Positions 6,150-42,615 of a stretch of DNA of 42,615 nucleotides are shown here, in pieces. The stretch is from Thalassobaculaceae bacterium (GTDB lineage: Bacteria > Pseudomonadota > Alphaproteobacteria > Thalassobaculales > Thalassobaculaceae): contig OZ245843.1 in assembly GCA_965228875.1 (NCBI GenBank), forward strand, positions 496,001-538,615, in the 5' to 3' direction. The notes beneath the pieces are model-generated. The model was given only the letters and a program-made list of their open reading frames with translations, had not been told where the DNA came from and did not search any database. Made by a program: the position numbers and the translations under genes. Positions within the stretch are counted from its first letter, which is position 1. The number at the start of each line of letters is the position of its first letter.

Positions 6150-7214
6150 ATGAGCACTTTCGTCATCGGCTACTACGCCCTGCTGATCGGGGCATCCTGT
6201 CTGGCCGCCTACTACAGGGTGCAGGGTACGTTCCTCACCCTGTTCTCGCTGACCCTGGTGTCGTTCATCGTCGGGATCGTCGGCGGCGTCGACGCTTTGT
6301 GGAACATCACGGTCTGCGTCGCCGCCATCGCGCTCGCCGCGGGGGTCGCCTATTCCCTGCGGGAGTTCCTGGTCATCGTCTGCCCCCGCGACCTGTCGCG
6401 GGCGTTCCGCACGGCGCCGCTGACCGCGACGTTCGGCATCTTCGTGATCGGGACCTACGCGATCGCCGGAATCTTCGCGCCGATCATCGCCCCGCACGGC
6501 GAGGCGGAGATCATCGGCCTCGCCTTCGAGGAGCCCAGCGCCAACATGCTGCTCGGGGCCGACCAGCTCGGCCGCGATATCTTCAGCCGTCTGATCTACG
6601 GCGCCCGCAACACCGTCGGCCTCGCCCTCATGGCGACCACGCTGGCGTTCGTCATGGGGGCCCTGGCCGGACTGCTGGCCGCGACCCATGGCGGCTGGTT
6701 CGATCAGTTCATGGGGCGTCTCGTGGACGTCATCATGTCGGTGCCGTCGCTGATCTTCGCGCTGCTGCTGCTGTCGATCTTCGGCACGGGCGTGACGGTG
6801 CTGGTCGTCGTGATCGCCGTGATCTACTCGCCCCGCGTTTTCCGCCTCACCCGGGCGGTCGCCGGCAACGTGGTGGTCATGGACTACATCGAGGCGGCAC
6901 GGCTGCGCGGTGAGGGGACCTGGTACCTCATCCGCAAGGAGATCCTGCCGAACTCGACCGCCCCGCTGATCGCGGAGTTCGGCCTCGAGTTCTGCTTCGT
7001 CTTCCTGCTGGTGGCGGGCCTGTCATTCCTCGGCCTCGGCCTTCAGCCGCCGACCGCCGACTGGGGCTCGATGGTGCGTGAGAACGCGACGCTGATCTCC
7101 TTCGGTGTCGTCACGCCGCTGTTCCCCGCCGCCGCCATCGCCCTGCTGACGGTGGCGGTCAACTTCGTCGTCGACTGGATGCTGTTCCGGTCCTCCGGCC
7201 TGAAAGGGGTGTGA
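6150..7214 (+). CDS. ABC transporter permease (DppC-like) with a hydrophobic N-terminal extension
   Basis: LLGADQLGRDIFSRLIYGAR, YIEAARLRGE and LSFLGLG.QPP..DWG.M motifs. Confidence 0.92.
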   Translation: MSTFVIGYYALLIGASCLAAYYRVQGTFLTLFSLTLVSFIVGIVGGVDALWNITVCVAAIALAAGVAYSLREFLVIVCPRDLSRAFRTAPLTATFGIFVIGTYAIAGIFAPIIAPHGEAEIIGLAFEEPSANMLLGADQLGRDIFSRLIYGARNTVGLALMATTLAFVMGALAGLLAATHGGWFDQFMGRLVDVIMSVPSLIFALLLLSIFGTGVTVLVVVIAVIYSPRVFRLTRAVAGNVVVMDYIEAARLRGEGTWYLIRKEILPNSTAPLIAEFGLEFCFVFLLVAGLSFLGLGLQPPTADWGSMVRENATLISFGVVTPLFPAAAIALLTVAVNFVVDWMLFRSSGLKGV

Positions 7215-7216
7215 TC

Positions 7217-8869
7217 ATGGCGGACAAGAAGAAAGAGGTCCTGCTCAAGGTCCGCGACCTGCGGATCGAGGGTTACACGGACGAAAAGTGGATCGAGATC
7301 GTTCATGGCGTCGACCTCACCCTGCATCGGGGTGAGGTCATGGGCCTGATCGGCGAATCCGGGGCGGGCAAGTCGACCATCGGGCTGGCCGCCATGGGCT
7401 TCGCCCGCGACGGTTGTCGGATCTCCAGCGGATCGATCGAGTTCGACGGTATGGAACTGACGACCACGCCGGAAGCGGACCGGAGGGCGTTGCGCGGCTC
7501 ACGGATCGCCTATGTGGCGCAGTCGGCGGCGGCGTCCTTCAATCCGGCGCACAAGATCATCGACCAACATACCGAGGCGCCGGTCCACTACCGGATCCGC
7601 AAGCGCATGGAAGCCCAGGAAGACGCGATGGAGCTCTATGAGCGTCTGCGTCTTCCCAACCCGTCGGAGATCGGCTTCCGCTACCCGCATCAGGTCTCGG
7701 GTGGGCAGCTGCAGCGGGCGATGACGGCGATGGCCATGGCGTGCCGTCCCGACCTGATCATCTTCGACGAGCCGACCACCGCGCTCGACGTCACCACCCA
7801 GATCGAGGTGCTGGCGGCCATCCGCGACATCGTCGAGCAGTTCAACACCGCCGCCATCTACATCACCCACGACCTCGCCGTCGTGGCGCAGATGGCGGAC
7901 ACCATCAAGGTGCTGCTCAAGGGCAACGAGGTCGAGGAAGCCGACACCGAGACCATGCTGAAGAACCCGAAGGAGGACTATACCAAGTCGCTTTGGGCGG
8001 TGCGCAGCTTCCAGCGGCCTCAGAAATCCCGGCCCGGCGGCGACGCGGTACCAGTGGTGTCGGTGCAGAACATCGACGCCGCCTATGGCGACACCAAGGT
8101 GCTCAGCGACGTCTCGTTCGATATCTATGCCGGCATGACGGTGGCGGTGGTCGGCGAGTCTGGGTCCGGCAAGTCGACCACGGCGCGCTGCATCACCGGT
8201 CTCCTGCCGCCGACCAGCGGCAAGATCATAATGAGCGGGGTCGAGATGCCGGCCAGCTACAAGCAGCGGAACAAGGAACAGCTGCGCCAGGCGCAGATGA
8301 TCTACCAGATGGCCGACACCGCGCTGAACCCGAAGGTGAAGATCTGCGACATCATCGGGCGGCCGGCGGAGTTCTACATGGGCCTCAAGGGCGGCGAACT
8401 GAAGAGCCGGGTCGACGAGCTTCTCGACCTGATCGAGCTCGAGCCGTCCAAGTTCTACAACCGCTATCCGCCGGAGCTGTCGGGCGGTCAGAAGCAGCGC
8501 ATCGGTATCGCCCGGGCGCTGGCGGCGGAACCGTCCTTCATCATCTGCGACGAGGTGACCAGCGCGCTCGACCAGTTGGTCGCGGAGGGTATCCTCAAGC
8601 TGCTGGACCGACTGCAGCAGGAACTGAACCTGGCCTACATGTTCATCACCCACGACCTGGCGACGGTCCGCTCCATCGCCGACGAGGTCGTGGTGATGAA
8701 ACAAGGAGAGGTGGTCGAGCAGGGACCGAAGGAGGAAATGTTCACACCTCCGCACCATCCCTATACCGACCTGCTGCTGTCGTCGGTGCCGGAGATGGAT
8801 CCCAATTGGTTGACCACCGTGCTCGAGGAGCGCGGCGTCGACAATATCGGCGAGGCGGCGAACGCCTGA
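7217..8869 (+). CDS. ABC transporter ATP-binding protein with duplicated ATPase domains (DppD/F fusion)
   Basis: Two Walker A motifs (GESGAGKS, GESGSGKS), two SGGQ signatures, and DEPTTALD / DEVTSALD. Confidence 0.95.
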   Translation: MADKKKEVLLKVRDLRIEGYTDEKWIEIVHGVDLTLHRGEVMGLIGESGAGKSTIGLAAMGFARDGCRISSGSIEFDGMELTTTPEADRRALRGSRIAYVAQSAAASFNPAHKIIDQHTEAPVHYRIRKRMEAQEDAMELYERLRLPNPSEIGFRYPHQVSGGQLQRAMTAMAMACRPDLIIFDEPTTALDVTTQIEVLAAIRDIVEQFNTAAIYITHDLAVVAQMADTIKVLLKGNEVEEADTETMLKNPKEDYTKSLWAVRSFQRPQKSRPGGDAVPVVSVQNIDAAYGDTKVLSDVSFDIYAGMTVAVVGESGSGKSTTARCITGLLPPTSGKIIMSGVEMPASYKQRNKEQLRQAQMIYQMADTALNPKVKICDIIGRPAEFYMGLKGGELKSRVDELLDLIELEPSKFYNRYPPELSGGQKQRIGIARALAAEPSFIICDEVTSALDQLVAEGILKLLDRLQQELNLAYMFITHDLATVRSIADEVVVMKQGEVVEQGPKEEMFTPPHHPYTDLLLSSVPEMDPNWLTTVLEERGVDNIGEAANA

Positions 8870-31972: not shown

Positions 31973-32962
31973 CTATCGCGTGTTGTCCTCTATGGCCTTG
32001 AGGAAGGCGTCCGGGCTGCTCGGTACGTCGCGGGCGCTGTCGTAGACGCTTCCGGGGACCGAGTAACCGGGCGTGGGACCATACTTCGGCTGGGGCGCGG
32101 GTGCCGCTCCTCCCTCTGTCAGGCCTTCGACGATGCCGTCGCCGATGATGTCCAGAATCGTGCCCACGAGATCCTCGCCGCCTCCCGGAGTCGGCGCTCC
32201 ACCCGCACCGCCGGGCTGTCCTGCGACCCGACCGGTGGCTGTCTTGGAACGGCAGTATGCGAAGTACGTGTCCTCGCGGTCGCCGTCGTCGTAGTGCACC
32301 CGGATAGCAGTCCCGTTCCGGGCGGCGATCACGCCGTCGTAGTAGGTGTCGCCCCCCTGCCACTTGCATTGGACCCGTGAGCCCGGGCGCCAGACGTGTC
32401 CGGAGATCCGGTTCGGACGCAGATCGGCGGTGTCTCCATCCTCGAAGGCCACATGATAGACCTCCGAGTTCCATCCTGAGATCCGCGCAGCGTACCACCA
32501 GCCGTTCGACCACTGGGCCAGGACGGGTTGGTTCCTGGCGTATCCGGTGCGTGCGGCGAACGCACCCGCCGTACGCGACCGGCAGTTATGCACACCGGTC
32601 GTTTCGTGGGCACCCCCGCCGTACCCGACCATGACCTGGGCACCGTTGACCATCGCCACCGTCGCTTCCCGGTAACCGCCCGATCCTCCGGGGCGGCACT
32701 GGATCTGCGAGCCGGCCCGCCAGTCGAAGCGGCCGATGCCGTCGGCACGGACCGACAGCCGGTCGCCGTCCTCGAAGACAAGGTCGTACACATCGCCCCG
32801 CACACCGGAAACGCGTGCCGGATACCACCAGCCGTTCGTCCACCTGCCGAGAATCCGCTGGCTGTCGGCGACTGCGACGGTACCGTTCGATACGCTGACG
32901 ATACCTGCCAGGAGGATTGCCGGAAGGATCGCCCAAACAGGCCCAAAGGTGGCGGAGCGCAT
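31973..32962 (-). CDS. Secreted protein with four Tudor/Agenet-like repeats
   Basis: N-terminal signal-like helix; duplicated A-B repeat (W.NGWWY.AR...Y...FEDGD followed by WR.GS..QC...CRS). Confidence 0.75.
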   Translation of the reverse strand: MRSATFGPVWAILPAILLAGIVSVSNGTVAVADSQRILGRWTNGWWYPARVSGVRGDVYDLVFEDGDRLSVRADGIGRFDWRAGSQIQCRPGGSGGYREATVAMVNGAQVMVGYGGGAHETTGVHNCRSRTAGAFAARTGYARNQPVLAQWSNGWWYAARISGWNSEVYHVAFEDGDTADLRPNRISGHVWRPGSRVQCKWQGGDTYYDGVIAARNGTAIRVHYDDGDREDTYFAYCRSKTATGRVAGQPGGAGGAPTPGGGEDLVGTILDIIGDGIVEGLTEGGAAPAPQPKYGPTPGYSVPGSVYDSARDVPSSPDAFLKAIEDNTR

Positions 32963-33070
32963 GCGGTTCCCTCCTGTCTGCACGTCGAGTGGTCTAACCC
33001 GGGTCTCGTGACGGTCGGCTTGGCCCTGTCGTGCGCGCCGTGCCGACGCCTTAGCCGTGTCGACGCGTTA

Positions 33071-35470: not shown

Positions 35471-36616
35471 ATGAAGACCAACCGCCCGCTCGCACCCGAA
35501 ACCCTCGCCGCCCAGGCGCTCGGCTTCATCGATGCCGAGAACGGGGCGGTGGTGCCGCCGATCCACAACGCCACCACCTTCGAACGCCCTCCGGGCGGCG
35601 TGCCGGGGCCGGGCTACAACTACACCCGCAGCGACAACCCGACCTACGCCCAGGTCGAGGCGCTGCTGGCGCGGCTGGAGGGCGGCGCCGAGGCCATGGT
35701 GCTCGCCTCGGGCATGTCGGCGGTGACGGCGCCGTTCCTGGCCCTGGCGCCGGGCGACCACGTGGTGGTGCAGGACGTGCTGTACTGGGGCGTGCGGGCC
35801 TGGCTGAACGACTTCGCGACCCATTGGGGGCTCAGGGTCGACTATGTCGAGGCCGGGGATCTCGACGCGCTGCGGTCCACGGTGCGCAAGGGCGAGACCC
35901 GTCTGGTCTGGGTCGAGACCCCGGCCAACCCGCTGTGGAACGTGGTCGACATCGCCGCCGCCGCCGATATCGCCCATGCCGCCGGCGCCCGGCTGGCGGT
36001 CGACTCGACCGTTGCGACGCCAGTGCTGACCCGGCCGCTTGAGCATGGCGCCGACCTGGTCATGCATTCCGCCACCAAATTCCTGAACGGCCACAGCGAC
36101 GTGTTGGCCGGCGCGCTGATCACCGCGCGGGACGACGACTACTGGCAGCGCATCCGCATGGTCCGCAAGGACCTGGGCATGGTGATCGGGCCGCAGGAGG
36201 CGTGGCTGCTGCTGCGGGGCATGCGCACCCTGCACCTGCGGGTGCGCCGGGCGAGCGAAAACGCGCTCGCGATCGCCGAGGCGATGCGGGACCACCCGAA
36301 GGTGACGCAGGTGCTGTATCCGGGGCTGCCCGATCATCCGGGCCACGCGGTTGCCGTCCGTCAGATGACCGACGGGTTCAGCGGCATGCTGTCGATCCGG
36401 GTCGCGGGCGGCAAGGAGGCCGCGCTGGAGACCATGCGGCGCATGACGGTGTTCACCAGCGCCACGTCGCTCGGCGGCACCGAGAGCCTGGCCGAGCACC
36501 GACGCTCGACCGAAGGCGCCGACTCGCCGGTGCCTGACGACCTGATCCGCCTGGCCGTCGGCATCGAGGCGACCGCGGACCTGATCGACGACCTGACCCA
36601 GGCCCTGGCGTTCTGA
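35471..36616 (+). CDS. Cys/Met metabolism PLP-dependent enzyme (cystathionine gamma-synthase/lyase family)
   Basis: YTRSDNPT, SGMSA, ETPANP, DST, HSATKFLNGHSD (PLP lysine), SLGGTES and R.AVGIE motifs. Confidence 0.92.
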   Translation: MKTNRPLAPETLAAQALGFIDAENGAVVPPIHNATTFERPPGGVPGPGYNYTRSDNPTYAQVEALLARLEGGAEAMVLASGMSAVTAPFLALAPGDHVVVQDVLYWGVRAWLNDFATHWGLRVDYVEAGDLDALRSTVRKGETRLVWVETPANPLWNVVDIAAAADIAHAAGARLAVDSTVATPVLTRPLEHGADLVMHSATKFLNGHSDVLAGALITARDDDYWQRIRMVRKDLGMVIGPQEAWLLLRGMRTLHLRVRRASENALAIAEAMRDHPKVTQVLYPGLPDHPGHAVAVRQMTDGFSGMLSIRVAGGKEAALETMRRMTVFTSATSLGGTESLAEHRRSTEGADSPVPDDLIRLAVGIEATADLIDDLTQALAF

Positions 36617-36644
36617 GCGGCTCCCGCCGGCCGGCGCTGTCGGA

Positions 36645-36700
36645 CGGGCGCGATGCACGGGCACGATGCAGGGGGGCGATGCACGGGCGCGATGCACGGG
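36645..36700. repeat. 4 x 13-bp tandem repeat
   Basis: CGGGCGCGATGCA CGGGCACGATGCA GGGGGGCGATGCA CGGGCGCGATGCA CGGG. Confidence 0.85.
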
Positions 36701-36861
36701 GGCCGAAGTCTTGCCCGTACCGTGCCCCTGTCGTGCCGGTCGGCCCGTCGGTGGAGCGGCCGCCTGCGCACGGCGCTTGACGCCGTGGCCCGGCCGCCCG
36801 TAGAAGGGGCCGGCATACGCCGTGCGGGGTCGGGAGACCGCCCCGAATGAGCCCTCCCGGC

Positions 36862-36953
36862 GGAGGGGTGGCCGAGTGGCTGAAGGCGGCGGTTTGCTAA
36901 ACCGTTTTAGGGGGAAACCCCTAACGTGGGTTCGAATCCCATCCCCTCCGCCA
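36862..36953 (+). tRNA. tRNA-Ser(GCT)
   Basis: Acceptor stem GGAGGGG/CCCCTCC, D-arm GCCGAGTGG, anticodon loop TT-GCT-AA, long variable arm, GTTCGAATC T-loop, G discriminator and encoded CCA. Confidence 0.97.
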
Positions 36954-37236
36954 TCTCAAATCTTCGGCCAGCACCCACGGCTACCCTTCCCACGACCGGT
37001 TCGGCGTCGTCGGGTGCCAGGCGGGATCGCGGGCTGGCGGCGTTTTCCATCCCCCTTCCGGGCCCGTCGCAGCCGGCTGTCTTTGGCTGCCGCCGGTCGT
37101 ACCCCGGCCCGCCCGTCCTCTCGGCCACAAGGTGCTTGCCCGACGGACGGGTTTCGCGCCATGAAGGTGGCGACCGTGCCCGGCCTCGCGCGCCGGGCGT
37201 TCCGCGCCGTCCCGTCCACCGCCCGCCGGAGTGGCC

Positions 37237-37755
37237 ATGCCGTCCGACACGATCTGGATCACCGGCCTGTCCGGCGCCGGCAAGACCACGCTGGCCGAAG
37301 CGCTGGTCGAGCGCATGCGTCGGCGCGGGCGGCCTGTCGTGCTGGTCGACGGCGACGTGATCCGCGATCTGTTCGGGGCGTCGCTCGGCTTCGACGTCGA
37401 TGCGCGGCGGGTCCAGATCGGCCGGCTGCAGGCGCTGGCCAGGTTCCTTGCCGACCAGGGGGTCGATGTCGTCGTCGCGGCGCTGTACAGCGCGCCGGAC
37501 CTGCTCGCCTGGAACCGGGCCAATCTCGCCGGCTATTTCGAGGTCTACATCGAGGCGTCGCTGGCGCTGGTGACCGGCCGGAATTCAAAGGGGCTGTACG
37601 ACGGCACGACCCGGAACGTGGTCGGTGTCGATATCGACTGGCTGGCACCGCGATCCCCCGACCTGGTGGTCGAGGCCGACCGCGAGGAACCGGTCGCCGA
37701 GGTCGCGGCGCGGATCGAGCGGCACCTGGCGGACCGGGCCGGTTCCGAAACCTGA
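37237..37755 (+). CDS. Adenylyl-sulfate kinase-family protein (divergent)
   Basis: TGLSGAGKTT P-loop, DGD..R and KGLY motifs; has NVVGVDI in place of canonical NFTGID. Confidence 0.85.
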   Translation: MPSDTIWITGLSGAGKTTLAEALVERMRRRGRPVVLVDGDVIRDLFGASLGFDVDARRVQIGRLQALARFLADQGVDVVVAALYSAPDLLAWNRANLAGYFEVYIEASLALVTGRNSKGLYDGTTRNVVGVDIDWLAPRSPDLVVEADREEPVAEVAARIERHLADRAGSET

Positions 37756-37764
37756 AGGGATCCC

Positions 37765-38847
37765 ATGACCGCTGTCGACCTGACCAAGGCGCAATACCTG
37801 GAACTGGAGAAGATCGGGCTCGGGGCCTTCGACCCGCTGACCGGCTTCATGGACGAGGATACGTTCTGGGCGGTGGTGAACACCCTGCGGCTGCCCGACG
37901 GCAGTCCGTTCCCGCTGCCGGTGATCCTCGACGTCGACGACGCCACCAGGGAGCGGATGCGCGAGAGCGGCGATGTCGAGTTGCGCTACGACGGCGAGAC
38001 CGTCGGCCGGATGCAGGCGCGGAGCTTCTTCCAGGTGGACCGCGCCGCCGCGGCGCGCGAGATCTACCGCACCGACAGCCCGGACCACCCCGGCGTGCGG
38101 ACCTTCCTCGGCCTGCGGCCGTGGTTCGTGGGCGGGCCGGTGACGCTGCTGAAGCGGGCGGCGTTCCCGTTCTCCGGCGACGAGGTCACGCCACAGGAGA
38201 GCCGGGAGATCTTCCGCCGGCGCGGCTGGCGCACGGTCGTCGGTTTCCAGACCCGGAACGTCCCGCATCGGGCGCACGAGTACCTGCACCGGGTGGCCCT
38301 CGAGGTCGCCGACGGGCTGTTCCTGCAGCCGCTGGTGGGTCAGAAGAAGAAGGGAGACTTCACCCCCGAGGCGATCCTGACCGGATACCGGGCGATGATC
38401 GACGGTTTCTACCCGTCGGGCCGCGTGCTGCTCGGCATTCTTTCGACATCGATGCGCTACGCCGGTCCGCGCGAGGCCGTGTTCCACGCGATCGTCCGGC
38501 GCAACTACGGCTGTACCCACTTCATCGTCGGCCGCGACCATGCGGGCGTCGGCGATTTCTACGGCCTGTACGACGCCCACGCGCTGACCCGTGAGTTCGA
38601 CGGCGAACTCGGAATCGAGATCCTGCGGCTCTCGGGGCCGTTCTACAGCAAGGCCGCCGGCGGCATCGTCACCGAGAAGACCTGCCCGGAGCATCTGATC
38701 GGCACCGACGACATCATCGAGATCAGCGGAACCCGGATCCGCGGGATCCTGGAGGCGGGCGAGCCGCTGGACCCCCGTCTGATCCGCCCGGAGGTGGTGG
38801 CCGCGCTTGACGGCGTCCCGCTGTTCGTGAAAGAGACCGGCGAATGA
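37765..38847 (+). CDS. sat: Sulfate adenylyltransferase (Sat-type ATP sulfurylase)
   Basis: PL.GFM, FQTRNVPHRAHE, MRYAGPREA..HAI.R.NYGCTHFIVGRDHAGVG, ISGT..R and RPEV motifs. Confidence 0.94.
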   Translation: MTAVDLTKAQYLELEKIGLGAFDPLTGFMDEDTFWAVVNTLRLPDGSPFPLPVILDVDDATRERMRESGDVELRYDGETVGRMQARSFFQVDRAAAAREIYRTDSPDHPGVRTFLGLRPWFVGGPVTLLKRAAFPFSGDEVTPQESREIFRRRGWRTVVGFQTRNVPHRAHEYLHRVALEVADGLFLQPLVGQKKKGDFTPEAILTGYRAMIDGFYPSGRVLLGILSTSMRYAGPREAVFHAIVRRNYGCTHFIVGRDHAGVGDFYGLYDAHALTREFDGELGIEILRLSGPFYSKAAGGIVTEKTCPEHLIGTDDIIEISGTRIRGILEAGEPLDPRLIRPEVVAALDGVPLFVKETGE

Positions 38848-40283
38848 GCCTTACCAAGATTGTCGCGACGATCGGCCCCGCCTCGATCGCACCCGATACC
38901 ATTGCCGAGCTTCTCTCCGCCGGCATGTCGGTCGCCCGCCTGAACGCGAGCCACGCCGATCTCGACTGGCACGCCCGGGCGGTGGCGCTGCTGCGCGAGA
39001 CGGCGCCGCAGGTTCCGATCCTGATGGACATCCCGGGCAAGAAGATCCGCACGGTGGCCCTGGCCCACGAGCCGAGCTTCGACGTGGACGACCGGATCGT
39101 CCTGACCACCGACCTGTCCCATGACGGCACCGAGAAAGTCCCGGTCTCCTGGCCGCACCTGCACGACCGGCTGAAGCCGGGGGACCTGGTTCTGGCCGAC
39201 GACGGCACGCTGCGTTTCCAGGTGGAACGGGTCGAGGGGCAGGACATCGTCTGCGTCGCCGAAGCCGCCGGCCAGCTCAAGAGCCGCAAGGGCATCAACG
39301 TGCCCATGGTCCGGCTCGACATGGACCTGATGACCGAACGTGACCGGAGGATGATCGGCTTCGCCCGCGAGCAGGGGGTCGATTTCATCGGCGTCAGCTT
39401 CGTCGAGTCTGCGGCCCATGTGGACCTGATGCGCGCGGAGGCCGGCGCCGACGGCCCGGCGATCGTCGCCAAGATCGAGAACGCCGCCGGTCTGGCCAAC
39501 ATGGAGGAGGTGATCTCCGCCGCCGACGCCATCATGATCGATCGCGGCGACCTGAGCGTCGAGACCCGGCTCGAGACCGTGGCGATCGAGCAGAAGCGAA
39601 TCCTGGCGGCGGCGATCGACCGCGCCAAACCGGTGATCGTCGCCACCGAGATGCTGCATTCCATGGTCGAGAACCGCTTTCCGACCAAGGCCGAGGTCGC
39701 GGACATCACCAATGCGGTGCTCGACGGGGCGTCGGCGACGATGCTCTCGGGCGAGACCGCCGCCGGCCGGTTCCCCCGCGAATCTGTCCGCACCATGCGG
39801 GCGGTGGCGGACGCGGCGGAGACCTATCTGTTCGAGGCGGAATTGGCCGCCGCGCCGCGGGCCCTGCCCGAGGCGCCGGACAGCATTCCGTTCACCATGC
39901 GCCGCGCCATCGCGTCCGTCGTGTCCGACATGTCGATCACCAAGATCGTGGCGGTCACCGTGTCCGGCTATGCCGCCCGGGTCGTCGCCTCTACCCGGCC
40001 GCGCCAACCGGTCCTGGCGATCACCAACAATCCGCAGACCGCGCGCCGGGCGAACCTCTATGCCGGAACGACGGCGCTCTTCGTGGACATCCCGTTCACC
40101 AAGGTCAGCACTGACCATGTCAGCCGCTGTCTGGAGGCCGCCTGGCGGGCCGGCGACCTGGAGGACGACGACGTGATCCTGGTCACCGCCGTCGCCTATC
40201 CGCGTTCCGGCAACCGGATGAACATCCTGCAGACCCACCGCGTCGCCGACCTCGTCGAGAGCCTGAACTGGCGGCGGGACTGA
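38844..40283 (+). CDS. pyk: Pyruvate kinase-family protein (divergent)
   Basis: TKIVATIGP, RLN.SH, KGINVP, SFV, AKIE, RGDL and MLSGETA motifs; ATGA overlap with sat. Confidence 0.88.
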   Translation: MSLTKIVATIGPASIAPDTIAELLSAGMSVARLNASHADLDWHARAVALLRETAPQVPILMDIPGKKIRTVALAHEPSFDVDDRIVLTTDLSHDGTEKVPVSWPHLHDRLKPGDLVLADDGTLRFQVERVEGQDIVCVAEAAGQLKSRKGINVPMVRLDMDLMTERDRRMIGFAREQGVDFIGVSFVESAAHVDLMRAEAGADGPAIVAKIENAAGLANMEEVISAADAIMIDRGDLSVETRLETVAIEQKRILAAAIDRAKPVIVATEMLHSMVENRFPTKAEVADITNAVLDGASATMLSGETAAGRFPRESVRTMRAVADAAETYLFEAELAAAPRALPEAPDSIPFTMRRAIASVVSDMSITKIVAVTVSGYAARVVASTRPRQPVLAITNNPQTARRANLYAGTTALFVDIPFTKVSTDHVSRCLEAAWRAGDLEDDDVILVTAVAYPRSGNRMNILQTHRVADLVESLNWRRD

Positions 40284-40305
40284 CCGCCGCCGGCCCACGG
40301 GGGAG

Positions 40306-40956
40306 TCAGGCCAGGGCGGAGGTGTAGTCCTCCACCGATCGGATCACGGTTCCCCGCTGGATCGGGACGCAGTCCGGGGGAAAGTCCTGCCTGAACCGGG
40401 CACCGGCCTCGGTGGCCCGGTCGAGAAACCGCTCCAGGTGGTCCATGGCGCCGGTCGGGAGGTCATGCAGGACGATGAGGGTCCAGGGCTGGCGCCAGCA
40501 CTGGTCGAGCGCCCGTTCCACCCACCCTTCCGGATCCGCCCAGTCGCGCGGAATGGCGTTCCACAGGACGCAGGAATAACCCTCGGCCATCAGGTGATCG
40601 ACGACAGCGGGGCGGAGCAACCGGCGGTCGAGATTGCCGCCGCCGCCGAAGGGGCGGAACAGTCGGGATGTCACGCCGCATTCCTCCAGGAGGCGGGCGG
40701 TCGACACGATCTCCGTCTCGACGACATCGGGCGTCGGATCCTCGCCGAGTGGTGTCGTGTGGGAGAAGGTGTGATTGCCGACCCAGTGGCCGTCCCGCAG
40801 CGTCGCACGGACCAGGTCGCGCCCGGCGGACGCGGAGACCTGCCTGCCGACGACAAAGAAGGTCGCCAGGATCGAGCGTTCGCGCAGAATTTCCAGGACG
40901 CGCGGGGTCACGTCCGGGTCGGGACCGTTGTCGAACGTCAGCGTAAGATCGTACAT
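40306..40956 (-). CDS. Polysaccharide deacetylase (NodB/CE4) family protein
   Basis: LTFDNGP, ATFFVVG, NHTFSH, FRPF, DW and LHD motifs. Confidence 0.88.
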   Translation of the reverse strand: MYDLTLTFDNGPDPDVTPRVLEILRERSILATFFVVGRQVSASAGRDLVRATLRDGHWVGNHTFSHTTPLGEDPTPDVVETEIVSTARLLEECGVTSRLFRPFGGGGNLDRRLLRPAVVDHLMAEGYSCVLWNAIPRDWADPEGWVERALDQCWRQPWTLIVLHDLPTGAMDHLERFLDRATEAGARFRQDFPPDCVPIQRGTVIRSVEDYTSALA

Positions 40957-41148
40957 GGTCGGGCCTCGGTCGTCGGCGCGCGTCGACATCGTGGACGGGA
41001 TGTGATCCCACCATATTGACAACATCTTCGCCCGCCGCCACTCCTAGGCCGGATAAACCGCGATACACCAACACCGGCCGGATCCGGAGCTAGCCGAACA
41101 ACCGCTGGCCGGAGACCGACCGCGCCGCGCCGACCTGGGGAAACGCCT

Positions 41149-42615
41149 GTGAAAAACTCGAAGACCGTTCTCATCGACCGTCATCCGGGCCGCTCGGCCC
41201 AGACCATCGGGCTCGCCCGCGAACTCGGCACCGATCCGGCGCTGATCCACGAGCCCTCCGTCGGGGTCGTCGGCACCAAGGGCGACAGCCAGTGCTATCT
41301 CGGCGTCGCGGAGAAGGTCGAGGCGATCCACGCCTGCCTGAAGAGCCGGATCGGCATGGCGGACGGCCAGCTCAAGCTGCGTCTGGTGCAGCCGGAGTTC
41401 ACCATCGCGACCTCCGACGGCATCCGCAACGGCACGCGCGAGATGCGCTACTCGCTGATTGGCCGCGAGGTCACCCATGACGCGCTGTGCGAACACCTGG
41501 AGGCGACGGGCCTGGCCGGGACCATCGCCGTGGTCGCCTGCGACAAGCCGCCGGTCGGAACGCTCGCCGCCCTGCTGGAGCATAACCAGCCGGCGATCAT
41601 CATGTCGGACGGCCCGATCCATCCCGGCAAGGACCCGAACACCGGTGAGGCGCTCGACATCGTCAGTGCCTATCAGGTCGCCGGCAACCCGGACCCGGAG
41701 TTCCGTCACCACATCGCCTGCAACGCCTGCCCGGGCATCGGCAGCTGCGGCGGCATGTTCACCTACAACACCATGCAGACCTTCATCGGCGTCGTCGGCC
41801 TGCAGCCGCTGCACATGGTCGCTCCGGCTTCCGACGATCCGCGTCGGGTGAGCGAGTTCCCGCAGGAACTCGTCGGACATCTCGCCAGGCTGATCGAGGC
41901 CGACCTGAAGCCGCGGGACATCGTCGTGCGCGACTCGCTGCGCAACGCGATGATCGTCTCCATGGCGATCGGCGGCTCGACCAACGTCACCCTGCATGCG
42001 CCGGAGATCGCCCGGGCCGCCGGGTTCGCCGACTTCTGGAAGGAGGTCATGACGCCGGAGGAGTTCAACCATCTTTCCCAGCACGTGGTTCCCGTGCTGA
42101 CCGACGCCCGGCCCTATGGCCGGTACTCGATGGTCGACATCGACCGGGTCGGCGGCGTCCAGGTGATCGTGCGCGAACTTCTCGAGGCCGGGCTGCTCAA
42201 CGGCGACGTCATGACCTGCACCGGCGAGACTCTCGCCGAACAGGTCGCGCGGCTGGAGACCAGGCCGGTCGATGGCACTGTCGTCTACCCGGTCGAAAAG
42301 CCGTACAAGCCGACCGGCGGTCTGCGGGTGCTCGGTGGCAACCTGTCGCCGGATTTCTCGGCGATCCTGAAGCTGGCGGGCGTCGAGGTCGGTCTGGAAG
42401 ACAACCGGTTCGTCGGACGCGCCAGGGTGTTCGAGGGTGAGGCGGGACTGTTGACCGCCCTCGATGAGGCGCCCGAGAGCTTCGAGAACAACGACATGAT
42501 CATCGTGCGGTACGAAGGACCGAGCGGCGCGCCGGGCATGCCGGAGATGCTCGATCCGACCTCGCGCATCACGACGCTGTGCCGCGAGCGGGGGATTGCC
42601 GTTGGACTGATGACC
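41149..42615 (+). CDS. ilvD: IlvD/Edd family dehydratase (3' end runs off the window)
   Basis: Not in the ORF track. Manual translation from GTG at 41149 gives SDG, MRYSL..RE, CDK, GSCGGMFTYNTM, GGSTN..LH, GNL.P and RYEGP.GAPGMPEML. Confidence 0.88.
   Translation, partial: MKNSKTVLIDRHPGRSAQTIGLARELGTDPALIHEPSVGVVGTKGDSQCYLGVAEKVEAIHACLKSRIGMADGQLKLRLVQPEFTIATSDGIRNGTREMRYSLIGREVTHDALCEHLEATGLAGTIAVVACDKPPVGTLAALLEHNQPAIIMSDGPIHPGKDPNTGEALDIVSAYQVAGNPDPEFRHHIACNACPGIGSCGGMFTYNTMQTFIGVVGLQPLHMVAPASDDPRRVSEFPQELVGHLARLIEADLKPRDIVVRDSLRNAMIVSMAIGGSTNVTLHAPEIARAAGFADFWKEVMTPEEFNHLSQHVVPVLTDARPYGRYSMVDIDRVGGVQVIVRELLEAGLLNGDVMTCTGETLAEQVARLETRPVDGTVVYPVEKPYKPTGGLRVLGGNLSPDFSAILKLAGVEVGLEDNRFVGRARVFEGEAGLLTALDEAPESFENNDMIIVRYEGPSGAPGMPEMLDPTSRITTLCRERGIAVGLMT

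Follow-up and report, generated by a model that had tools for sequence, protein, structure and literature searches.

The 42,615-nucleotide stretch of Thalassobaculaceae DNA analysed here (contig OZ245843.1, positions 496,001 to 538,615 of the forward strand; hereafter the window) carries, 3′ of a tRNA-Ser(GCT) gene (36862-36953), three co-directional open reading frames (ORFs) in a tight operon of the order kinase-sat-pk. The first (37237..37755, + strand) encodes a 172-aa P-loop kinase resembling adenosine 5′-phosphosulfate (APS) kinases of a non-canonical branch, the second (37765..38847, +) a 360-aa ATP sulfurylase (Sat), and the third (38844..40283, +) a full-length, 479-aa pyruvate kinase (PK) with barrel, lid and C-terminal domain, assigned to a putatively sulfation-linked subfamily. 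Comparative evidence suggests that this trio is probably an accessory, self-contained operon supplying 3′-phosphoadenosine 5′-phosphosulfate (PAPS) for sulfation, in which PK would recycle ADP to ATP with phosphoenolpyruvate (PEP). The kinase and sat genes are separated by 9 bp (37756-37764), and the sat stop and pk start share an ATGA (38844..38847, +), read directly at the junction, which suggests translational coupling. Two starts are available to the kinase gene, GTG 37231 (174 aa) and ATG 37237 (172 aa); the latter is likelier because a GGAG Shine-Dalgarno-like motif (37228..37231, +), overlapping the GTG, sits 5 nt ahead of it and because orthologues begin near the P-loop. An earlier, sequence-only reading of the window had proposed this layout of trio, tRNA-Ser, 9-bp gap and ATGA overlap, with the same preferred kinase start, and the ORFs and sequence confirm it.

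The Sat protein consists of a PUA-like domain and a catalytic domain, as in the short enzymes of Thermus and Methanothermococcus, which provide its closest structures (1v47, E 1.8e-87; 8a8d, 5.9e-87). It matched PF01747 with 267 bits (cut-off 24.3), PF14306 (PUA_2) with 119 bits and NF003166 with 420 (cut-off 387), and scored 320.5 against TIGR00339, just below the cut-off of 322.95. The PUA-like N-terminal domain and the QTRN-x-x-H-x-x-H and GRDHAG motifs place it with the homo-oligomeric Sat type, and FQTRNVPHRAHEY and GRDHAGVG are invariant in 16 Sat orthologues.

The kinase scored 92.3 bits with PF01583 (cut-off 21.1) and 133.5 with NF004041 (cut-off 127). Its best solved relatives are the APS kinases 5cb6 and 8a8h, and it also aligned to 8i1m. 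The P-loop G10-L-S-G-x-G-K16, the D38-G-D40 motif, R43, R57, R63 and R-x-x-K-x-LY are invariant in 15 kinase orthologues. We take Arg57 and Arg63 to be the two arginines that grip the phosphosulfate, with the roles assigned in the PAPSS1 and Penicillium structures. APS is the presumed substrate, because the partner Sat is canonical and sulfotransferases accompany the cassette.

The third protein scored 287.7 with PF00224 (cut-off 30), 62.4 with PF02887/PK_C (cut-off 28) and 420.3 with TIGR01064 (cut-off 306.4), and its solved relatives are pyruvate kinases, 2e28 and many others. R32, N34, D62, K210, E212, D236, T268, S302 and E304 are invariant in all 17 trio PKs and all 119 close homologues; S36 is kept in 17/17 and 114/119, respectively, and the lid lysine K149 is invariant. 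The ten catalytic and ligand positions presumably correspond to rabbit Arg72, Asn74, Ser76, Asp112, Lys269, Glu271, Asp295, Thr327, Ser361 and Glu363. As judged from these alignments, the residues that bind PEP, metals and nucleotide phosphates are all intact.

Around this conserved core, the PK clade has a signature of its own: G/A35, P64, K67, S147, D233, S/A238, E269, K282 and A377. The residues at 35, 64, 147, 233, 238, 282 and 377 set it apart from all 28 PKs used for comparison (10 housekeeping enzymes, 5 of other phyla and 13 of the long eukaryote type). Position 35 is Gly or Ala instead of the Phe or Met of N-F-S-H, position 238 is Ser or Ala for Gly, and position 377, in a C-domain loop, is Ala for Thr. 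Asp233, an Ala elsewhere, occurs in 136/136 clade members and in 0/28 comparison PKs; Lys282 is equally universal in the clade (136/136), where all 28 comparison enzymes have Arg. The alpha6′ helix thus reads D-RGDL-S/A instead of the usual A-RGDL-G. An excerpt of PMC3467265 describes this helix as highly conserved in all PKs and the arginine at the Lys282 position as crossing the large interface to hydrogen-bond the backbone of the neighbour's alpha6′ helix, RGDLGxE. In the trio PK the interface arginine is Lys282, and since Lys282 and the alpha6′ residues both differ in the clade, both sides of this inter-subunit contact have changed together. We infer that the activation lock may have been rewired, possibly into an effector-independent form, and that the Lys282/Asp233 pair would uncouple the enzyme from glycolytic regulation.

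Conservation of the trio was followed through named genomes, 400 genomes sampled evenly across the class and a phylum sample, with at most 20 kb fetched per locus. Among the named genomes, it occurs in two copies in alpha proteobacterium BAL199 and in one in a Nisaea metagenome-assembled genome; a single-protein locus search with the PK returned eight loci, three with the trio and five (35-37% identity) without a kinase or sat match in their flanks. The class sample held a PK 54-61% identical in 13 genomes and one more at 39% (G319), and the phylum sample contributed two more, one at 58% and, from another class, G602 at 46-49%. At all 17 other loci where the PK is at least 54% identical, kinase, sat and pk stand in that order; these loci span 11 or more families of the class, and the trio counts as conserved among marine alphaproteobacteria. 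Because the same genes recur in the same order, the arrangement is not due to chance, and the sequence-only reading's reservation that the trio might not be conserved elsewhere falls away. The sat-pk spacing, taken over the window and 16 of these loci, is a 4-nt overlap in 12/17 and -8, -1, -1, +4 and +4 nt in the others, which implies that translational coupling of the two genes is conserved. Sat-type genes of any kind were found in 46/401 class-sample genomes, 14 of them of the trio type.

Individual loci offered further observations. The second BAL199 copy (L008, contig ABHC01000039.1, 4847-9074) has its pk split by about 1 kb bearing an opposite-strand 338-aa ORF (6936-7952), with DDE and ISL3 transposase genes in the flanks, and is likely an insertion-inactivated, mobile copy. 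At L031 (G142:C64, 11885-12409) the kinase matches fall in two pieces in different frames, through a frameshift or a sequencing error. The same-clade PK of G602 (L108, G602:C5, 9714-11120; 46-49% identity) carries the Asp233/Lys282 signature and lies beside a LysR-type gene, with no sat or kinase. An open frame of 759-810 aa spanning pk and sat in G242 was dismissed as a high-GC artefact, the two genes being in different frames.

The association of the two larger proteins also extends to gene fusion. Among the best 120 long relatives of Sat, one is a fusion of a helix-turn-helix domain, PK and Sat (P0136, 935 aa; PK 88-552, Sat 589-929). Another 98 join Sat to an alkaline-phosphatase (AlkP)-family domain (PF01663/PF00884; about 860 aa, e.g. 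P0134), a partner that could be a pyrophosphatase or a phosphatase of 3′-phosphoadenosine 5′-phosphate (PAP). The same set includes 10 fusions to APS kinase, 8 to Sulfotransfer_5 (about 644 aa; P0157 group), 2 to a pyridoxal-phosphate (PLP) enzyme (P0191/P0197, about 800 aa; PF01053/PF01041) and 1 of ComA (phosphosulfolactate synthase) to Sat (P0243, 661 aa). A search for long PK relatives gave no Sat fusion among 13 long matches, most of them multi-domain PKs of eukaryotes.

In a PK tree of 34 rows, the trio PKs and the solo PK of G602 form a clade (support 100/98) that the PK part of P0136 joins at 100/100, and the housekeeping PKs from these genomes sit in a clade apart (100/100); P0136 is a long, compositionally odd branch, and its placement needs care. 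Its PK shares Gly35, Pro64, Ser147, Asp233, Ser238 and Lys282. The Sat tree (39 rows, by a quick method, including 15 of 30 alphaproteobacterial Sat loci outside the trio type) likewise unites the trio Sats in a clade (Shimodaira-Hasegawa-like approximate likelihood-ratio test, SH-aLRT, 98) with the Sat part of P0136 as sister (99), and places the other alphaproteobacterial Sats in two distant clades. Since the same sub-clades recur in both trees and the two halves of P0136 group with the trio PK and Sat, the two proteins appear to have been inherited as a pair, split or fused.

These data bear on the possibility that the pyk of the trio encodes no more than an additional glycolytic isozyme, carried along with sat and the kinase gene through hitch-hiking in a mobile cassette or shared regulation, with no functional link. 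Many bacteria have two PK isozymes, the trio PK is full length with its C-terminal regulatory domain, the clade member of G602 stands alone, and in one trio genome, G239 (96% complete), the trio PK is the only one. Such passive company is nonetheless very improbable given the 17/17 linkage over at least 11 families with a conserved start/stop overlap, the shared sub-clades of the two trees with both halves of one fusion protein as nearest outgroup, and the clade-specific changes at the regulatory inter-subunit contact.

The genome itself (4.96 Mb, one contig) shows that the trio is accessory, because a second pyk and a cysD-cysN/C set lie elsewhere in it. The second PK is the more canonical (family score 358 bits, against 289 for the trio PK), and a canonical APS kinase is contained in a 916-aa open frame beside a cysD-type gene, with cysD-cysN/C at about 1.003-1.005 Mb. 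The sequence-only reading had asked for a separate housekeeping pyk and cysDNC, and had allowed that this pyk might be the only one in the genome; both sets are present, and a second canonical PK is also found in 9/10 other trio genomes, G239 being the exception. The trio supplies the only Sat-type sulfurylase of the genome. AprA was not found there, so that Sat does not belong to a reverse dissimilatory route. Two genomes labelled as the same genus, both single contigs of about 1.5 Mb with 99% completeness, are without the trio PK and Sat.

The usual setting of the trio in other genomes is a surface-glycan locus, as follows from the content of its flanks. Pfam assignments for 104 flanking ORFs include glycosyltransferases of the GT4 and GT2 families, AsnB-like amidotransferases, NeuB, PMT_2, FkbM methyltransferases and ABC exporters, together with sulfatase/AlkP-family and Na+/H+-exchanger-family proteins. 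In three loci the gene directly after the trio encodes a sugar-nucleotide epimerase. Two genomes of one genus (G029 and G338) encode a Sulfotransfer_1 protein of 456 aa directly 3′ of pk with a start/stop overlap, and the operon thus includes a predicted PAPS consumer in at least one lineage. The neighbourhood analysis called for by the sequence-only reading therefore yields recurrent linkage of this PK clade with sat and the kinase gene, and glycosyltransferase genes in the flanks.

Two other families recur beside the trio. A membrane protein of the Na+/H+-exchanger family (about 410-420 aa) is encoded at L007:9474-10337, L034:12456-13697, L037:13233-14498 and L039:400-1632, and might be a pathway-linked transporter. 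AlkP-family genes lie at L037:6758-8359 and L039:8362-10812; their products are 44% identical to each other, gave no BLAST match to the P0134 domain and have no homologue in the genome of the window. L035 was matched in the latter genome by arylsulfatase-type proteins only.

An alternative role in sulfate assimilation was weighed, in which the trio would provide APS or PAPS for cysteine and methionine in place of CysDN under some conditions, with PK giving ATP. On the far side of the tRNA, just upstream of the trio, lie genes for a PLP enzyme of Cys/Met metabolism (35471-36616) and for a LysR regulator; PF01053/PF01041 PLP enzymes occur as fusion partners of some long Sat relatives, as noted above; and the window holds no sulfotransferase gene. 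The tRNA gene, however, lies between the PLP gene and the trio, and this neighbourhood is not kept at the other 17 loci, where the neighbours are glycan genes and a sulfotransferase. Canonical cysN/C is, moreover, already present in 13/14 trio genomes, that is, in all the sufficiently complete ones: the canonical APS kinase scored 206-240 bits in these, and the exception is 65% complete. PF01507 (PAPS_reduct) hit the window's own genome in one place only, the cysD-type gene beside cysN/C, and found no cysH-type APS/PAPS reductase, despite NIR_SIR genes at about 4.22-4.25 Mb. Within the window, Pfam found no cysH/cysIJ, aprAB, sulfotransferase or glycolysis gene among 38 ORFs supported by third-codon-position GC content (GC3), as the sequence-only reading had stated, and the trio is not linked there to cysH, cysIJ or cysDN; its remark that pyk is foreign to cys operons also holds. 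An assimilatory role is accordingly improbable.

We return to a dedicated PAPS supply as the preferred explanation. Sulfation, whether biological or industrial, is limited by how much PAPS is available, and ADP and APS together inhibit APS kinase. According to the proposed scheme, Sat would convert ATP and sulfate to APS, the APS-kinase-like enzyme would convert APS to PAPS with release of ADP, and the co-translated PK would return this ADP to ATP with PEP. Removal of ADP would keep the kinase from being trapped in the dead-end enzyme-ADP-APS complex by which APS kinases are blocked, and the net reaction would be sulfate + ATP + PEP → PAPS + pyrophosphate (PPi) + pyruvate. The PAPS would pass to sulfotransferases, most likely for sulfated surface glycans; the genome has nine candidate genes for such enzymes outside the window. 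The kinase substrates, the ATP-recycling role of PK and the sulfate acceptor are the parts that we infer. The sequence-only reading had offered two models; the first, a PAPS cassette with an ADP-recycling PK, is favoured because of the glycan neighbourhoods, the in-operon sulfotransferase of one genus, the PK-Sat fusion, the intact PK residues and the need for PK/PEP in vitro. Nothing speaks positively for the second, in which PK transfers a sulfuryl or other group to pyruvate, since the enzyme retains the full set of catalytic residues of a phosphotransferase PK.

Several observations weigh against a dedicated PAPS supply. The window contains no sulfotransferase or glycan-synthesis gene among its 38 ORFs, the sole hint being a polysaccharide deacetylase gene (40306-41025) convergent with the trio, and of the 9 distinct places in the genome that match sulfotransferase families PF13469 or PF00685, even the closest is about 75 kb away. 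Sulfotransferase enrichment in trio genomes is modest (PF13469 in 11/14, against 179/387 other genomes, with the trio genomes related; the overall tally of 190/401 includes the unpublished G240). The same-clade PK of G602 stands without sat or kinase, and ATP drawn from a cell-wide pool should in principle spare the operon a PK of its own. The PK changes affect near-invariant positions (Ala to Asp233, Gly to Ser238, Arg to Lys282 and Phe to Gly/Ala35), and an excerpt of PMC3467265 reports that loss of the arginine equivalent to Lys282 abolishes Leishmania PK activity; judged on its sequence, ordinary PK activity is not certain for the trio enzyme. Finally, the kinase scored 105.4 with the APS-kinase equivalog TIGR00455, below the cut-off of 138.7, and is missing the canonical ISP and FTGIS motifs, with ALY(A/S) and VVG-x-D instead and WNR present. 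The Asn of ENIRR is Gln60 (Q-I-x-R) in its clade.

The last point was pursued through the wider family of the kinase. A profile built from the 15 orthologues and run against 1.84 billion representatives returned 1,065 proteins at E ≤1e-30, of which 29 long ones were scanned for partner domains. Sixteen had the kinase domain only; the others were fused to PPDK-like domains (4), peptidase C26/glutamine amidotransferase (GATase) (2), NTP_transf_3 (2), iron-containing alcohol dehydrogenase (2), CDP-alcohol phosphatidyltransferase (1), Sulfotransfer_3 (1, P0400) and CysN (1). Six of them (P0348, P0395, P0304, P0385, P0353 and P0396) combine non-canonical kinase domains with PPDK-like, C26/GATase or MobA-like nucleotidyltransferase domains and look like enzymes from the O-methyl-phosphoramidate pathway of Campylobacter in fused form. 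In domain type, the PPDK-like, C26 and NTP-transferase partners correspond to Cj1418, Cj1417 and Cj1416, and Cj1415-Cj1418 together make CDP-phosphoramidate 3′-phosphate, according to an excerpt of PMC11800397. VVG-x-D and WNR are common to the trio kinase and the kinases fused to these domain types, which also counts against a plain APS kinase, whereas the canonical Sat-CysC and CysN-CysC fusions lack both; the Sat-CysC fusions P0141 and P0244 and the CysN-CysC fusion P0283 keep the canonical motifs. By these motifs, the trio kinase is a member of a non-canonical and probably functionally plastic branch of the APS kinases.

Altered chemistry would account for these features if the kinase and PK acted on something other than APS and ADP, for example another nucleotide-linked donor of the kind found in the Campylobacter phosphoramidate pathway, or moved a sulfuryl or other group to or from pyruvate or PEP. 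The sub-threshold equivalog score, the pocket motifs shared with the phosphoramidate-type fusions and the PK substitutions around the active site all speak for it. Yet the ATP and sulfate motifs of Sat are fully canonical, with APS the expected product, the PK ligand residues are all kept, and the kinase retains its P-loop, DGD motif and both phosphosulfate arginines. Furthermore, a PAPS-type sulfotransferase lies in the operon of one genus, P0400 joins a kinase of this family to Sulfotransfer_3, and the phosphoramidate-pathway partners are not near the trio in 18 loci. We consider altered chemistry unlikely.

A more speculative idea is that the cassette recharges PAPS in a cycle on 3′-phosphorylated adenine nucleotides, instead of pairing de novo synthesis with a helper enzyme. 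The kinase may convert PAP to the 5′-diphosphate, PK with PEP may carry this to the triphosphate, and Sat may then swap the terminal pyrophosphate for sulfate; the changes Phe to Gly/Ala35, Pro64 and Ser147 may represent an opened nucleotide region of PK. PAP may thereby be re-sulfated without degradation, while canonical cysDN/C performs de novo synthesis. Such a cycle seems far-fetched. By a milder version, the three proteins may form a physical, self-fuelling PAPS synthase with PK locked active by the Asp233/Lys282 pair.

In the rest of the window, the Pfam scan assigned transporters, regulators, the Cys/Met PLP enzyme, the polysaccharide deacetylase and an IlvD/Edd-family dehydratase, and none of the genes next to the trio there encodes a pyrophosphatase. 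A promoter scan of 36500-41300 gave no promoter-like sites, and terminator-like matches fell only within sat; an Rfam scan of 36400-41200 at a permissive threshold returned the tRNA only. As regards a possible island inserted at tRNA-Ser, no direct repeat of the tRNA 3′ end was found downstream. G131, a genome of the same family, is without the trio, and synteny there is broken by a contig end. A 13-nt unit (GGGCGCGATGCAC-like) is present in about 4 tandem copies (36646-36697) in the interval that separates the Cys/Met PLP-enzyme gene from tRNA-Ser. A 336-aa ORF at 31973-32983 (- strand) has weak matches to the eukaryote-type Tudor families PF18104, PF18115 and PF21743, which is unusual in a bacterium. 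Sequencing runs that contain this DNA come from 11 studies of aquatic, seawater, coral and pond metagenomes, with no RNA run listed among them.

The sequence-only reading had called the module undescribed, and a full-text literature search indeed found no paper on a natural pk-sat-APS-kinase operon or fusion. What the present analysis adds is a full-length form from alphaproteobacteria, the 17/17 linkage, the paired PK/Sat phylogeny with its fusion outgroup, the Asp233/Ser238/Lys282 signature and the placement of the kinase in a non-canonical branch. If a dedicated PAPS supply is correct, the PK subfamily would serve pathway-specific ATP recycling instead of glycolysis and be recognisable by Asp233, Ser238 and Lys282, and the operon would offer ready-made parts for PAPS regeneration. 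The PK/Sat linkage also occurs in other lineages as a single fused polypeptide, and the work draws attention to an unstudied non-canonical APS-kinase branch whose substrate range is of interest.

Among known systems, rhizobial NodP/NodQ with NodH provide a precedent for a second sulfate-activating set beside the housekeeping cysDN(C), feeding a sulfotransferase for a surface or secreted glycan. NodPQ are paralogues of CysD and CysN-CysC and are driven by GTP hydrolysis, whereas the trio has a Sat of the homo-oligomeric type, no GTPase, and a PK in addition. Bifunctional PAPS synthases (2gks, 1x6v; NF004040) likewise join Sat and APS kinase, and the trio Sat and kinase both match these chains. 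The trio differs from them in its separate proteins, its kinase-sat order, its non-canonical kinase and PK as third partner; its two proteins scored 255 and 86 with NF004040, far below the cut-off of 669.

Cj1415 of Campylobacter jejuni is an APS-kinase homologue outside the canonical CysC family, and it acts as a cytidine diphosphoramidate kinase. The trio kinase is likened to it through shared motifs of that branch and through relatives that carry, as fusions, the domain types found in the other enzymes of the Cj1415 pathway. It nevertheless forms its own group, with the ALY motif, and its partner is a canonical Sat and not a cytidylyltransferase, amidohydrolase or glutamine kinase. As for PK, Lys67 of the trio enzyme occupies the position of rabbit Glu117, and Ile63 that of the hydrophobic residue 113, which assigns it to the K+-independent (Lys117) class described in PMC8835810, PMC5501398 and PMC4284704; the housekeeping PKs of the trio genomes are also Lys117 enzymes. 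One of these sources gives L113/Q114/(L,I,V)120 for 77% of the Lys117 group. From this pattern the trio clade departs with I113/P114/T120, as well as with Asp233, Ser238 and Lys282, found in 0/28 comparison PKs.

The closest parallel lies in laboratory PAPS cascades with PK/PEP regeneration, which use the same set of enzymes and the same logic: ATP sulfurylase, APS kinase and a PK that removes ADP. For a cascade of PAPSS1, pyruvate kinase and pyrophosphatase, an excerpt of PMC9885120 reports that PAPS was practically absent without the PK module. Such a cascade is an engineered mix of unrelated enzymes, whereas the trio is a conserved natural operon with its own PK subfamily and no adjacent pyrophosphatase. 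If our reading of it is right, bacteria solve the ADP problem of APS kinase as enzymologists do in vitro.

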